DNA of 64,000 bases from Curvularia clavata (GCA_023920165.1 CP089275.1:5084001-5148000), one strand, 5' to 3'. Shown: positions 7,705 to 58,532, counted from the first letter of the stretch. Notes: a model not told the origin generated them from the letters alone. Made by a program: numbers and translations.

Positions 7705-9837
7705 ATGGCTGCTCTCATCAAGGTGCCCTGCTCGTCAGCCAACATTGGCCCTGGCTTCGATGTTATCGGCCTGGCGCTCAATCTCTACCTCGAAGTCGAA
7801 GTCACAGTCACCAAGAAGGACCAGTCCGAGCATTCACTCAATTGCAAAATAACATACGAAGGCGACGACGCTGAACATGTCCCCCTCGTTGCGCAGGACA
7901 ATCTCATTACGCGAACCGCCGTATACGTCCTCCGCTGCCATGGCATCCGCCAATTCCCCTCAGAGACACACGTACACGTCAGGAACCCGATACCATTAGG
8001 ACGTGGTCTGGGATCCTCAGCCGCCGCCATTGTGGCAGGTGTACACCTGGCCAATGAAGTGGGCAATCTCAAGCTGTCCAGGGCGCGCATGCTCGACTAC
8101 TGCTTGATGGAGGAGCGACACCCTGATAACGTTGCGGCTGCGCTCTATGGAGGCTTTGTTGGCACTTACCTGAACGAACTGTCGCCCGAGGATACGGAGC
8201 GCCTCGAGATTCCGCTCAGCGAAGTCCTGCCCCAGCCTGCAGGAGGTGTAGACACGGGCCTCCAGCCGCCCGAGCCTCCTCTGAACATCGGACACTACAC
8301 CAAGTTCAACTGGTCGCCCGCCATCAAGTGCGTGTGCATAATACCCCAATTCGAAGTATCCACAGCAAAGGCACGTGCCGTATTGCCAGAGTCGTATTCG
8401 AGGAAAGATGCCATCTTCAACATGCAGCGTCTGGCGGTCTTGACCACTGCTCTTGGTCAAGCCACACCCGACCCCAACATGATCTACACAGCCATGCAAG
8501 ACAAGCTCCACCAGCCCTACCGTAGCGGCTTGATCCCCGGACTTACCGAGATTCTCAAGTCCGTCACACCGCAATCGCATCCAGGCCTTTTGGGCATCTG
8601 CCTCTCAGGTGCTGGGCCAACCATACTCGCCCTCGCGACAGAAAACTTTGACAAGATTGCAGAGCATCTTCTGGAAGAGTTCAAGAAGGAAGGCATAACT
8701 TGCGATTGGAAGCTGCTTGAGCCAGCCGAGGAGGGTACTGTCGTCACACGCTCTGCCAACGCATCGCAACCAGCTGGCGAGGCATTGACATATGCCTCTT
8801 CCGGTGTTAGCATCGATGCAGGCAACGAACTAGTCAAGCAGATCAAGGCGCTCACTGCCAGCACAAAGCGACCCGGAGCTGATGGCAAGATTGGTGGCTT
8901 CGGTGGCCTGCTTGATCTCCAGGCAGCCGGATACACAGAGGCCCCAATACTCGTCGGCGCCATCGACGGCATCGGCACAAAGGTCAAGATTGCCTTTGAA
9001 ATGGGCAAGCACGACACGGTTGGAATCGACCTTGTTGCAATGAACGTCAACGATCTGGTTGTACAGGGTGCGGAGCCGCTCATGTTCCTTGACTACTACG
9101 CTTGCAGCAAGCTCGACGTTCAGGGTGCAGCCAAGTTTGTCGAAGGTGTCGCCAACGGGTGTCGCCAATCTGCATGCGCTCTGGTGGGTGGCGAGACGGC
9201 AGAGATGCCCGGCATCTATCAAAAGGGCGAATATGACGCCGGCGGAGCTGCCATTGGCGCCATCAAGCAAGGTGCGACAATTCTGCCAGACACAGCGTCC
9301 ATGGCCGAAGGTGACGTACTGCTGGGCCTCGCATCAAGCGGCGTCCACTCGAACGGCTTTTCGCTTGTCCGAAGAATCGTTGAGGCGCAGGGCATGTCGT
9401 ACCTGGACACTTGCCCCTGGAGCTCCGGTGAGAATCTAGGGACTGCTCTTCTGACGCCAACCAAGATCTACGTCAAACCGTTGCTAGCTGTAAGCCGGCG
9501 GGGCTTGATCAAGGGTATGGCCCACATTACGGGCGGAGGCTTGCTCGAGAACATCCCGCGCATGTTGCCGAAGACCCTAGCTGCCGAACTGGATGCGAAG
9601 TCGTGGCCCCTTCTAGACGTTTTCAAGTGGCTCAAGAAAGCGGGTCGGATGGAGCACACCGAGTTTGCGAGAACCTTCAACACGGGTCTCGGCATGGTGC
9701 TTGTGGTCAAGCAAGAGGACGTAAGGACTACCATGGATCGTCTGCAAGAGTACGGCGAGAAGGTCTATGTGGTGGGCTCGCTGAAGAAGAGGACTGACGA
9801 GGAATGCATTGTCAGGAACATGGAGGCCTGGGACTGA
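7705..9837 (+). CDS. Bifunctional fusion: homoserine kinase (Thr1/ThrB, GHMP kinase) + AIR synthetase (PurM, the Ade7 activity)
   Basis: Single intronless 710-aa ORF. N-half has VPCSSANIGPGFD, IPLGRGLGSSAAA, HPDN and LSGAGPT. C-half from residue 361 (nt 8785) has LTYASSGVSIDAGN, DGIGTK, DLVAMNVND, GGETAEMP, SSGVHSNGFS and AHITGGG. Confidence 0.95.
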   Translation: MAALIKVPCSSANIGPGFDVIGLALNLYLEVEVTVTKKDQSEHSLNCKITYEGDDAEHVPLVAQDNLITRTAVYVLRCHGIRQFPSETHVHVRNPIPLGRGLGSSAAAIVAGVHLANEVGNLKLSRARMLDYCLMEERHPDNVAAALYGGFVGTYLNELSPEDTERLEIPLSEVLPQPAGGVDTGLQPPEPPLNIGHYTKFNWSPAIKCVCIIPQFEVSTAKARAVLPESYSRKDAIFNMQRLAVLTTALGQATPDPNMIYTAMQDKLHQPYRSGLIPGLTEILKSVTPQSHPGLLGICLSGAGPTILALATENFDKIAEHLLEEFKKEGITCDWKLLEPAEEGTVVTRSANASQPAGEALTYASSGVSIDAGNELVKQIKALTASTKRPGADGKIGGFGGLLDLQAAGYTEAPILVGAIDGIGTKVKIAFEMGKHDTVGIDLVAMNVNDLVVQGAEPLMFLDYYACSKLDVQGAAKFVEGVANGCRQSACALVGGETAEMPGIYQKGEYDAGGAAIGAIKQGATILPDTASMAEGDVLLGLASSGVHSNGFSLVRRIVEAQGMSYLDTCPWSSGENLGTALLTPTKIYVKPLLAVSRRGLIKGMAHITGGGLLENIPRMLPKTLAAELDAKSWPLLDVFKWLKKAGRMEHTEFARTFNTGLGMVLVVKQEDVRTTMDRLQEYGEKVYVVGSLKKRTDEECIVRNMEAWD

Positions 9838-55575: not shown

Positions 55576-56517
55576 TCACTCGAGCTTGTAATCAGTCTTC
55601 CGCAAGAATGCCTCCAATCCCGTCACTTCGCCCTCTACCTGCTCCCTCGCCCACTTGACCAACTCCTCCTCGTCCTCCCCATAATACCCATAGTCCCTGA
55701 ACAACGCAAACATCTCAAACATCTGCTCGCTCACGTTCTGCGGAAAGAATCCCTTGACCACCTGATCCGGCAACTGCACATGCCTGACCGTCTTGCCCGT
55801 AACCTTACTTAGAATCTCCGCAACCTCATCAGACGTATAAAACGCCTCGGCCGCCGCAAAAAACTTGCCATTATACTTATCCGGCTCTGCCAAAATCGCT
55901 CCCACCCACTTACCCGTATCGGTAATATCGATGTATGGCACGCGCACATTCCCCGGCAGCACATCGGCAAGAACGTAGGTTCCATCGTTTTCCTGGCTCG
56001 GGCGGGGCTTCATCATACCCGTGAAATTCTGCATGAAGGATGCGGGGGCGAAGAAGGCGCTTTGGATAGGTAGGCGCCGGATATACAGCTCGGCCTCGGC
56101 TTTGACGTCGAAATGCTGCACGCGTTGTAGTGCGCCGTTGCTTATGTTCAGCGGCATGGACATGGAGCTGAAGATGATGTATCGTACGCCTGCGGCGAGA
56201 GCGGCTCGGCATACGGTTTTCACTTGGCGCGACTCGACGGCGCGCGCGGTGGAGTAGTCTTTGGGTGTGGGTGTGTTGAGGAAGAGGTACTGGACGTCTT
56301 TTAGGGCAGACGGCAGCGTGGATGCGTCGTCCATGTCTGCGCTGGCTAACTGGGCGCCCTGAGAGGCCAGCGTGGCCATGCTGGGGTGCGAGGTGTTGCG
56401 GGAGAGAGCGCGCACAGTATACTTGGAGGAGAGGGAGGGTGTGGAGAGGACATGTGAGGCGACGGAGAAGCCTTGGTTGCCTGTTGCGCCGAAGACGGCG
56501 AGAATGGGCTTGGACAT
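55576..56517 (-). CDS. NmrA-like NAD(P)-binding protein (atypical SDR)
   Basis: AVFGATGNQG, VRALSR, IFSS, HFDVKAEAE and FMQNF; ATG at 56517. Confidence 0.9.
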   Translation of the reverse strand: MSKPILAVFGATGNQGFSVASHVLSTPSLSSKYTVRALSRNTSHPSMATLASQGAQLASADMDDASTLPSALKDVQYLFLNTPTPKDYSTARAVESRQVKTVCRAALAAGVRYIIFSSMSMPLNISNGALQRVQHFDVKAEAELYIRRLPIQSAFFAPASFMQNFTGMMKPRPSQENDGTYVLADVLPGNVRVPYIDITDTGKWVGAILAEPDKYNGKFFAAAEAFYTSDEVAEILSKVTGKTVRHVQLPDQVVKGFFPQNVSEQMFEMFALFRDYGYYGEDEEELVKWAREQVEGEVTGLEAFLRKTDYKLE

Positions 56518-57238
56518 GTTGGTAGTGGTAGTGGTAGTGGTGGTGGGTAGTTGTTGAAGAGTAGAGATATTGGATTGGAGACTTGCAAGACTGGAATCTA
56601 AGAATGGTGGAATGACTGCTTGGTACAATTGTTCCTTGATGTTGAAATAACAAGCGGCCCTTCGTAGACTTTATACTCCTCCCTCGTATCCACTCCACTC
56701 ATATACAGCACGTACACGTACATGTACTATGACGAAGCCCCTCTCCCGGGGCATAGAACCGGAGTTAGTCATACTGTGTTGGTACTCAGCTGTAGGACAA
56801 CCATAAAAGAGTAGACGGGTGCAATTCATCCAATAGTTGCACTGGGTTGACGGTGGTCCTGCATGACTAGCACTACTCGAGTTAGATGGTCGGACATGTT
56901 TGCTTCTCCGATGGCGAAGTCGGCTCCGACATCTGGCGTTAGGATGAGCTTATCTCCATGCGCCTACTACTTGACTGGCTCAGCTGGGCATTGTGCTCAA
57001 TTGTGGCTGAATGCACTGGGGTCTAATACATGCATGCATGTTAAGTCTCTTGGTATGCCTTATGCTAACTGCAGACAGTAAAGTATTTTACCTTCTTGGT
57101 TTTCCTCCTTTGTTGTCGACTATCAAAACGCGACTTTTGGACTGGACGCCCAACACAGCAGGATTACAGCAATGGATATGACAAAAATAGCCTTGGACAT
57201 GTATGTGTGTGTATGCGTGTGTGCGAGCAAGCAAGAAG

Positions 57239-57266
57239 AAAAAAATGCAAACAAAAAGGCAAAAAA
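57239..57266 (-). terminator. Oligo-T Pol III terminator (T6, then back-up T5 and T7 runs)
   Basis: Minus strand reads GCTTGAT-A-TTTTTT-GCC-TTTTT-GTTTGCA-TTTTTTT directly after the 3' strand of the terminal stem. Confidence 0.65.
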
Positions 57267-57487
57267 TATCAAGCGAGTTACTCCGACGCGCCCTTGCTGC
57301 CCTACGCCATGCCCCCGGATCGAACTCTCGTTCGTCGTCGTCGGTTGGGCAAGCGCACCCCTGGCTCGCAGCCCATGTTCCTGACTGATTTCTCAGTGAG
57401 TTGATTGTGCTCAACGTGAACCTATACCAGCTACTGGTATTTTTGCCAAGAGGCCCTCCCAATTGGGCTATCGTGCAACTGCTTGAT
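57261..57487 (-). ncRNA. Candidate ~220-nt structured RNA polymerase III transcript of unknown family
   Basis: TATATAAAA at -30, A box TAGCCCAATTGG at +18, B box GAGTTCGATCC, T6 terminator, complementary 5'/3' ends (ATCAAGCAGTTGC / GTAACTCGCTTGAT) and several perfect hairpins, two with GNRA loops. Confidence 0.7.
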
Positions 57488-57508
57488 GGAAGGATGGGTA
57501 GTTTTGCG

Positions 57509-57517
57509 TTTTATATA
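57509..57517 (-). promoter_or_regulatory. TATA box of the candidate Pol III RNA gene
   Basis: TATATAAAA starts exactly 30 nt upstream of the A (57487) that opens the terminal stem. Confidence 0.65.
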
Positions 57518-57965
57518 CACCTACTTGAAAAGATGCGGTCTATCTACGCTACTCAAGAGCAAACAGCAACGCAGGCGCAAACGGGAACGCAAGGACATCA
57601 GGTTTCGTTTGCTCATAGCTCTATTAACCACCTCCATATGACTAGGCGGTAACTTCTACTCACTCTATAGTCTATAACATTTGACTTGACTGTTTCCTCT
57701 GGTGCATGCCATACTCTCGCTTTACCGCTGGAGAACCACCTACCAGCACTCTTTTCCCGGAACGTATGCGCTTTAGCTCAGATTCTCGTCGTTGCTCTGT
57801 CTTCTCGGTGCTTCGTGTACACCTTGATACCGCGACATGCTTTGGACCAGACCGAGATGACACAGTCCAGCGCGCATCGTAAAACCAGACTCACCCTCAT
57901 ACTGAGTGCTAGACTGCAGTTCACCCAACTTAAAAAAAGTCCACATCCGTTTCAGATCCACCATT

Positions 57966-58532
57966 TCAACCTTCAAACTCCCTCCCGCCACCCACATCCG
58001 CCTCATTCTCCACACCATACGCATCCTCAAAGCTAGCCAGCTTAACCCCCCACATATCTCCCGACTTTGCCTTCTCAGATATATCCTCATCACTCTCGTC
58101 GCCCTCCCAATTCCCATCGCCGACCCACCTAAATGCCAGTACAGCCCCATCCTTCAGCCCCGCACCCTTGGGACAGTTCTTCACATTCGCCGCACCAGCC
58201 TTGCCACCCGACGCCGCGGCTGCCTTTCCCTTTCCCTTGCCCTTCGGCTGCTCATCTTCGTCCTCAGCAGGACTGTATTCCCACTCGCCGAGCTTAAAGC
58301 CCTCATGCGCGTCGTTGATGTTGATGGGGCGGCCGAGCTGGATGTCTGAAGGCGATGACGGAAGCGGTATGGGTTGGCCTGTTTCTGGGTGTCGGAGCTC
58401 GGTCTCTTGTAGCGCATCGTAGAGAAAGGATTTAATGCTGTCGAAGGTGTTGAGGGGGTCGACATGGAGGAGGACGGTTGTTTTATGCGATTTCAGGCGC
58501 AGGGTCCATGTTAGGGGGGAGGGTGTGGCCAT
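57966..58532 (-). CDS. Hypothetical protein with probable ubiquitin-like (Elongin B-like) fold and acidic insertions
   Basis: Clean 188-aa ATG ORF; WTLRLKSHKTTVLLHVDPLNTFDSIKSFL...GAGLKDGAVLAFR pattern. Confidence 0.75.
   Translation of the reverse strand: MATPSPLTWTLRLKSHKTTVLLHVDPLNTFDSIKSFLYDALQETELRHPETGQPIPLPSSPSDIQLGRPININDAHEGFKLGEWEYSPAEDEDEQPKGKGKGKAAAASGGKAGAANVKNCPKGAGLKDGAVLAFRWVGDGNWEGDESDEDISEKAKSGDMWGVKLASFEDAYGVENEADVGGGREFEG

Follow-up and report, generated by a model that had tools for sequence, protein, structure and literature searches.

What is encoded by the element at 57239-57517 on the minus strand of a 64,000-nucleotide (nt) stretch of Curvularia clavata DNA (GCA_023920165.1 CP089275.1:5084001-5148000; the whole stretch is called the window below), which carries the signals of an RNA polymerase III (Pol III) gene and matches no RNA family that we could name? 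The reading that we prefer, and hold with somewhat better than even confidence, is that it is a real, conserved, Pol III-type gene for a structured non-coding RNA (ncRNA), belonging to a small, lineage-restricted and probably undescribed family of filamentous ascomycetes. Neither Rfam 15 nor the literature that could be searched contains that family. To judge from the sequence, the gene product is most likely a stable, compactly folded ncRNA of some 221-227 nt, transcribed by Pol III.

Read on the minus strand, the locus presents the Pol III signals one after another. A TATA box, TATATAAAA, lies at 57509-57517, with its first letter, T57517, 30 nt before A57487, the nucleotide numbered 1 in the RNA. 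The predicted transcript body runs from there to the end of a T6 run (57261-57487), an extent drawn from the sequence, the minimum free energy (MFE) fold and the partition function. Within it are an A box, TAGCCCAATTGG, at +18 to +29 (57459-57470) and a B box, GAGTTCGATCC, at +161 to +171 (57317-57327). The terminator region (57239-57266) comprises the T6 run (57266-57261) and two back-up runs, T5 at 57257-57253 and T7 at 57245-57239; T runs also occur 3' of the stem in two variant contigs from other sequencing data. All these signals had been described in an earlier note on this DNA, and all were found as it describes them.

Both strands of the window were scanned for a TATA box followed by an A box 35-70 nt on, a B box 30-200 nt beyond that and a run of at least five T within 150 nt, using loose consensus patterns. 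The ordered layout was seen at a single place in the 64 kb, namely 57239-57517 (reached from two TATA starts that overlap), and in none of 200 dinucleotide-preserving shuffles, which upholds the view that the arrangement is a non-random one of Pol III type. Its elements stand in the order, on the one strand and with the A box in the interval (+8 to +20) by which Pol III genes having a TATA box and internal A and B boxes are recognised in sequence. The element is also alone in the window: the 18-mer TAGCCCAATTGGGAGGGC, containing the A box, and the 17-mer GAGTTCGATCCGGGGGC, containing the B box, each match once at up to three mismatches, so that neither region has a second copy there, and the best other match in a short-word blastn search is 14 nt long. 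One 13-nt match, at 8099-8111, was considered as a second copy and rejected, being coding-like sequence without a TATA box.

Two features of low complexity adjoin these signals. The A-run after the TATA box and the T-rich terminator region form an 11-nt inverted repeat (57254-57264/57502-57512; 91% complementary), and CA/TG-rich simple sequence with T runs lies directly downstream of the terminator (57194-57245), where it was skipped as a repeat in the alignment of sequencing runs described below.

The predicted transcript folds far better than expected by chance. The 227-nt stretch 57487-57261 has an MFE of -84.9 kcal/mol, compared with -68.7 +/- 4.4 for shuffled sequences (z = -3.66), and none of 200 shuffles was as good. 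The signal is strand-specific, the opposite strand giving z = -1.75 and the minus-strand flanks of equal length +0.76 and +0.21; nine of the 76 pairs in the MFE structure are G-U and unable to pair on the opposite strand. Support for individual helices was taken from the pair probabilities of the partition function. The two ends of the RNA, whose pairing had been proposed from the sequence, are joined with probability 0.85-1.0 in a terminal stem, P1, of 13 base pairs (bp) with a bulge: its 5' strand is AUCAAGC followed by AGUUGC (positions 1-13; 57475-57487) and its 3' strand GUAACU followed by GCUUGAU, with C213 bulged (positions 207-220; 57268-57281). The MFE structure also has a D-arm-like hairpin, GCCC-AAUUGGGA-GGGC (57453-57468), which encloses part of the A box at a pair probability of just 0.2.

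Beyond these lie two domains. The central one (57358-57452) is closed by the helix CUCUUGGC/GCCAGGGG (positions 36-43/123-130; probability 0.54-0.76) and contains three hairpins, all of them short, together with a segment of 18 unpaired nt. The hairpins are H1, AUACCAG-UAG-CUGGUAU (positions 48-64; 57424-57440; probability 0.75-0.84), H2, GUUGA-GCACAA-UCAAC (positions 73-88; 57400-57415; 0.65-0.70), and H3, ACUGA-GAAA-UCAGU, with a GNRA loop (positions 91-104; 57384-57397; 0.72-0.80). The segment that follows, CAGGAACAUGGGCUGCGA (positions 105-122; 57366-57383), is unpaired in the centroid structure; no other copy of it, and no complement that might be an antisense target, occurs within the window. 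The 3' domain (positions 131-185; 57303-57357) is closed in the MFE structure by UGCGCUUGCCC paired with GGGCA-GGCGUA and has a length-variable inner part. It holds the hairpin H4, CGAAC-GAGA-GUUCG (57321-57334; 57317-57334 together with the B box that it overlaps), at a probability of 0.98-0.99. Of nine helices folded by hand in the earlier note, seven survive, these being the two halves of P1, H1-H4 and CUCUUGGC/GCCAGGGG; UUGGG/CCCAA (0.15-0.23) and CCGACG/CGUCGG (0.0) are unsupported.

Conservation was assessed in public sequencing runs. Part of the 279-nt stretch is held by 19 of the 21 runs listed, which come from 16 studies and carry at least seven organism labels, and ten hold half or more of the sampled words. 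Runs with small word shares, other than the four aligned below, were left out of account as to habitat and range. Four runs with four different organism labels (X3, X8, X15 and X19, X8 being that of organism D) were aligned over 56400-58200 at 80% likeness; runs were chosen since they contain the sequence, and the differences described are those listed for them, 21 more lying outside that listing. All four have contigs over the RNA body, covering 57246-57598 in X3, 57261-58200, in pieces, in X8, 57300-57450 in X15 and 57292-57460 in X19, and the downstream flank 56827-57192 is aligned in none of the four. The central domain is among the parts that align in all of them.

The listed substitutions fall at six sites inside the RNA. 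Two of these, 57413 A>G and 57402 T>C, are both seen in each of three runs (X3, X8 and X19); in the RNA they read U75>C and A86>G, a compensatory change that turns a U-A pair of H2 into C-G. The same three runs lack the H2 loop letters 57406-57407, leaving a four-base GCAA loop. The other four sites (five changes) are unpaired in the MFE structure. Two are the letters 57326 and 57327 of the H4 loop, which differ in X8 and X3, and no listed change affects the H4 stem. Nor is there a listed difference in the unpaired segment CAGGAACAUGGGCUGCGA in the runs that cover it. Insertions and deletions among the listed changes are in loops, beside the P1 bulge (an insertion in X8 at 57274) or at the variable positions 141-159, where four deletion places in X19 fall on letters paired in the MFE structure; that run has lost eight letters between 57329 and 57347, in the inner 3' domain.

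The contigs of organism D indicate that the locus has relatives elsewhere in that genome, something that the earlier note did not foresee. Depth in X8 is 112.7 over the flank compared with a summed 190-411 over the RNA, and the assembly breaks inside the RNA. The syntenic copy is the contig (record 19) that runs from 57427 into the neighbouring gene for a 188-amino-acid protein. Depth is doubled in record 17 (57330-57456). Records 18 and 20 lie in contigs of 7182 and 5939 nt, whose flanks are unrelated, and match 57403-57454 and 57427-57470, respectively. At least four X8 contigs with unrelated flanks, these two among them, match parts of the RNA locus. H1 is within the portion common to most of the X8 paralogue contigs (records 17, 18, 19 and 20). 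Three contigs (X8 records 21 and 22 and X3 record 12), again with unrelated flanks, match 57478-57518 or 57482-57529 only, that is, -42 to +10.

The shared sequence thus includes the promoter. In the syntenic contig no listed difference occurs from 57427 to 57530 and the first are met from 57531 onward, so that the conserved unit starts near -42 and takes in the TATA box; the block from -1 to -42 (57488-57529) is common to this contig and to other loci of the family. The loose ends of contigs, reverse-complemented and read by hand, extend the comparison into the diverged parts. AUCAAGC also starts the copies in records 18 and 20 (loose ends at 57454 and 57470). In record 18 the loose end before 57403 has, in the place of H3, the hairpin UUGAA-GCAA-UUCAA, in which four of five pairs are changed on both sides and a GNRA loop is retained; the 18-nt unpaired segment is missing from the record 18 copy. 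In X8 it is the loose end before 57261, and in X3 the one before 57295, that carries the T runs noted above 3' of the stem.

Two of the runs give a hint, not proof, of expression. X19 is on record as a metatranscriptome depleted of ribosomal RNA, and its sole contig on the stretch, of 170 nt and depth 2, covers RNA body only (57292-57460). X15 has a contig of 151 nt, also of depth 2, at 57300-57450, separate from the contigs of neighbouring messenger RNAs. Both are inside the predicted transcript. A further X15 contig, 57603-57831, opens with 13 non-templated T on the plus strand, which we read as the poly(A) site of the messenger RNA of the 188-amino-acid protein gene, the end of a minus-strand transcript; position 57603 is about 360 nt past the stop codon of that gene and 85 nt upstream of the TATA box. 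Since the T13 is read as a poly(A) tail, X15 probably represents complementary DNA.

Searches for known RNA classes were negative, as the earlier note had anticipated in calling the element no transfer RNA (tRNA) and in seeing no hallmark of the signal recognition particle (SRP) RNA, RNase P/MRP, U6 or Sm-class small nuclear RNAs (snRNAs). No Rfam 15 family reaches its gathering score anywhere in the window, and at E <=10, over 451 nt and 238 nt around the element, no relevant family covers the RNA body. The lone signal there is to a trypanosomatid H/ACA small nucleolar RNA (snoRNA), TB10Cs2H1, on the plus strand at 57333-57381; at 21.5 bits against a threshold of 35 (E 0.03-0.06) it was judged a chance match. 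The 451-nt scan gave one further match, of E 9.6, in the downstream flank. ARAGORN finds no tRNA or transfer-messenger RNA in the window, even with introns of up to 200 nt and thresholds lowered to 70-80%, by which a tRNA with a long intron was ruled out.

Hallmark motifs were sought within the RNA itself. For SRP, no model matches at E <=10, UGUAAU is absent even at one mismatch, and a loose helix-8 pattern is matched by a single string, at position 183, without a stem on its flanks. For RNase P and MRP, CR-I has no match even at one mismatch, CR-V no exact match, and RF00009 and RF00030 are unmatched. The U6 ACAGAGA and the Sm site (RAUUUUGR) have no exact occurrence in the RNA, the latter none at one mismatch either, and no Rfam match accompanies them. 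A C box (RUGAUGA) is absent from the RNA at up to one mismatch, and at the 3' end, where GCUUGAUA runs into six U, there is no ACA of the H/ACA kind. A protein-coding reading was rejected: none of the four overlapping open reading frames matches a Pfam family and relatives show insertions and deletions of 1 and 2 nt. The RNA contains a 24-codon frame opening with AUG, and this is broken by the eight deleted letters in X19.

Published ncRNAs were compared as far as their sequences allow. The Aspergillus Afu_* ncRNAs give no Rfam match to the locus. A full-text literature search that included six sequence strings from the RNA returned no match, the sole paper containing one of the strings being an unrelated human one. 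In the main texts of four papers on fungal ncRNAs and SINEs (short interspersed elements; PMC5063351, PMC8216456, PMC2377427 and PMC2467506) nothing matches; 'Intergenic structure 2' and Afu-262 may yet bear on the novelty of the RNA. The tables of PMC2377427 (Joechl et al. 2008) give sizes and loci and no sequences; by them Afu-262, with its 225-nt northern band, is neither linked to the present locus nor excluded.

Taken together, these results agree with the core of what the earlier note proposed, an independent multi-domain ncRNA of no family that it could name. The negative Rfam and ARAGORN searches, the non-random layout and fold, the conservation, the one compensatory pair and the RNA libraries all speak for it; two of its nine helices fall away.

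Several observations weigh against our reading and explain why it is held with reserve. The contigs from both RNA libraries are of depth 2, the runs were picked for containing the sequence and carry-over of DNA is possible; a discrete RNA of about 220 nt, its ends and its polymerase are predictions. The compensatory change at U75-A86 may be one evolutionary event, and the statement that no helix is broken is valid for the listed differences alone. As to organism D, conservation of the 5' part exceeds that of the flank only slightly (at most two differences in 104 nt; 31 are listed for 670 nt of flank). Instability of the 3' third shows in the eight letters deleted from X19, in X8 record 15, with 12 of 97 letters different, and in X3 record 11, where P1 has lost the 3' strand of its inner half. 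The altered H3 hairpin of the paralogue is based on one loose end of 30 letters aligned by eye. Finally, the exact 18-mer of the unpaired segment was found at 51 loci in metagenome contigs, none of them a homologue (none aligns beyond 26 nt), and a 21-mer scan of prokaryote genome contigs gave no locus; the 18-mer is a poor probe, the segment being absent from one paralogue.

Nine of those 51 metagenome contigs (L005, L010, L013, L017, L026, L030, L040, L050 and L051) have the 18-mer and one more base in common with the window, and their record names begin with similar prefixes. They are probably one recurring gene of another organism, unrelated to the RNA.

If the locus is a gene of the kind that we favour, the layout suggests how it would work. 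TFIIIC would bind inside the gene, at the A box (+18) and the B box (+161), with TFIIIB on the TATA box at -30; Pol III would start near A57487 and stop in the T6 run, with the T5 and T7 runs as back-ups. Termination in T runs finds support in their being kept in the variant copies. The predicted 13-bp terminal stem would then join the ends and leave a 3' oligo-U tail, the usual site of the La protein, which on general grounds may be expected to bind here too. The body is predicted to fold into two parts, a central junction bearing three short hairpins and a further domain that holds the fourth. Four-base loops of GNRA type in three hairpins, here or in relatives, suggest a packed tertiary fold in this structural model, of a kind typical for the RNAs of particles. 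The molecule may be the RNA part of a ribonucleoprotein, which is our best guess.

As to origin, the A box lies within a D-arm-like hairpin, and the B box with the CGGGG after it resembles the 3' half of a T arm. Because these look like the remains of a tRNA gene, the family probably arose, as far as can be told from such likeness, by exaptation of a tRNA gene, and probably spread by gene duplication together with its upstream promoter of about 40 nt. A bolder and distinctly tentative version, which we would sooner doubt than assert, is that filamentous ascomycetes have an undescribed family of RNAs, made by Pol III and rich in GNRA loops, of which this locus is the first member to be recognised; there would be at least five divergent paralogues per genome, each having the same external promoter of about 40 nt and the same clamp of 5' AUCAAGC and 3' GCUUG; these would be subunits of a ribonucleoprotein, or possibly catalytic RNA, derived by tRNA-gene exaptation.

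The same tRNA-derived look of the A box, with its D-arm-like hairpin, and of the B box lends itself to the main rival explanation, that of a low-copy tRNA-derived repeat, SINE-like or a relic. The A and B boxes would then be the head of the element, its structure a by-product and the organism D copies insertions. Several partial copies in X8 with differing flanks, and assembly breaks inside the element, would be expected of such a repeat; an imperfect 15-nt direct repeat (12 of 15 letters) occurs at 57247-57261 and 57559-57573; and low-copy tRNA-related 'SINEs' of 140-400 bp are described from Aspergillus fumigatus in the main text of PMC5063351. We nonetheless think this explanation unlikely. 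The copies have -42 to -1 in common, TATA box included, and two loci share -42 to +10 only; this argues against a SINE because retroposition of a Pol III transcript cannot carry its upstream region along. The earlier note had itself named the SINE option, as one that would refute novelty, and the promoter shared by the other X8 and X3 loci is contrary to the body-only copies that it implies. The 15-nt direct repeat, moreover, is part of a five-copy GCAAAC-rich simple motif and falls outside the conserved block, whose end is near 57530. There is no A-rich tail or tail like that of a long interspersed element (LINE), the unit ending in T runs; the locus stays beside the 188-amino-acid protein gene in organism D (X8 record 19); the listed changes keep the hairpins paired; and none of three motif strings from the RNA occurs in the AfuSINE sequences printed in PMC5063351.

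A highly divergent 7SL/SRP RNA, RNase P/MRP RNA, U6 or other snRNA or snoRNA missed by the Rfam models appears improbable. A promoter layout like that of yeast 7SL, ends paired as in P1 of RNase P/MRP, GNRA loops and GARAR-like strings at positions 94 and 159 would suit it. Set against them are the negative Rfam and hallmark-motif scans, the several divergent paralogues, which are unexpected for single-copy genes, and a length of 222 nt, less than is usual for the 7SL, P or MRP RNAs of ascomycetes.

We give as little credence to the possibility that the locus is a conserved cis-regulatory block of DNA between the 188-amino-acid protein gene and an NmrA-like gene, in which Pol III-like motifs and the capacity to fold are chance features. 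Its position would fit, with the NmrA-like start about 740 nt downstream of it and the poly(A) site of the other gene 85 nt upstream, and transcription is seen as hints only. Chance is hard to reconcile with a layout found in 0 of 200 shuffles and a strand-specific fold of z = -3.66, and a DNA element does not account for a change on both sides that keeps a stem paired or for the presence of the body in an RNA library; the block is, moreover, kept in organism D though nothing downstream aligns. The weakest alternative, a Pol III precursor cut into small RNAs resembling microRNA-like RNAs (milRNAs) or tRNA fragments, which the earlier note had also floated, has in its favour the Pol III signals and the Pol III-dependent milRNA precursors reportedly made in Neurospora and can be set aside as very improbable, since hairpin arms of at most 8 bp and a bulged terminal stem of 13 bp, the longest present, are too short for Dicer-type processing and the contigs from the RNA libraries extend over 151-170 nt of the body.

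The NmrA-like gene (E 8e-61) starts about 740 nt downstream of the locus. The 188-amino-acid protein gene occupies 57966-58532 on the minus strand; its product matches no Pfam family, its nearest Atlas clusters are ascomycete hypothetical proteins, and its middle part is acidic and rich in lysine and glycine. In organism D (X8) nothing was aligned at 56400-57253 at 80% likeness, the start of the NmrA-like gene included, and the side of the 188-amino-acid protein gene is collinear; missing cover is no proof of absence. The RNA may be linked to the latter gene only.

Fungi have a limited set of known Pol III products, namely tRNAs, 5S, U6, 7SL, RNase P RNA and a few orphans. If the preferred reading is true, a conserved, structured, multi-copy Pol III RNA of filamentous ascomycetes would point to an unrecognised ribonucleoprotein and offer an example of how a tRNA gene gave rise to a new RNA. 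The compact promoter, a shared upstream block of about 40 nt with A and B boxes, would suit the expression of guide RNAs. The locus would be an ordinary one if it is merely a low-copy tRNA-derived repeat.

How, then, does the locus compare with known systems? With tRNA genes and AfuSINE2, as the latter is presented in the main text of PMC5063351, it shares an A box in a D-arm-like hairpin, a B box identical to a T-loop sequence and, as reported for AfuSINE2, a low copy number. It differs from both in that it has no cloverleaf, its B box is in a different hairpin, its copies share the upstream promoter and there is no clear target-site duplication or tail.

The 7SL genes of Saccharomyces cerevisiae (SCR1) and Schizosaccharomyces pombe (srp7) are Pol III genes with an upstream TATA box and internal A and B boxes. 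The locus resembles them in its TATA box near -30, its internal boxes and its oligo-T end, and 7SL is likewise a structured particle RNA of a few hundred nucleotides. The resemblance stops at sequence, where no SRP model, UGUAAU or helix-8-type loop motif in a helix is seen at the scopes given above, and at architecture, the RNA of the locus having ends that pair directly, a shorter length and several divergent paralogues. RNA170, an orphan Pol III transcript of budding yeast, is similar as a lineage-restricted, Pol III-type small RNA with A and B boxes and no function known; unlike it, the RNA of the locus is strongly structured and has a TATA box and a family of paralogues, and no sequence relation between the two is expected.

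Animal vault and Y RNAs form small paralogous sets of Pol III transcripts, 80-140 nt long, with shared upstream elements, an end-paired stem and variable interiors, and in the vault RNA genes a TATA box is found together with internal A and B boxes. The protein partners of vault and Y RNAs are not known from most fungi. Neither RNA has an Rfam match at the locus, and the likeness to the family described here is one of organisation only.

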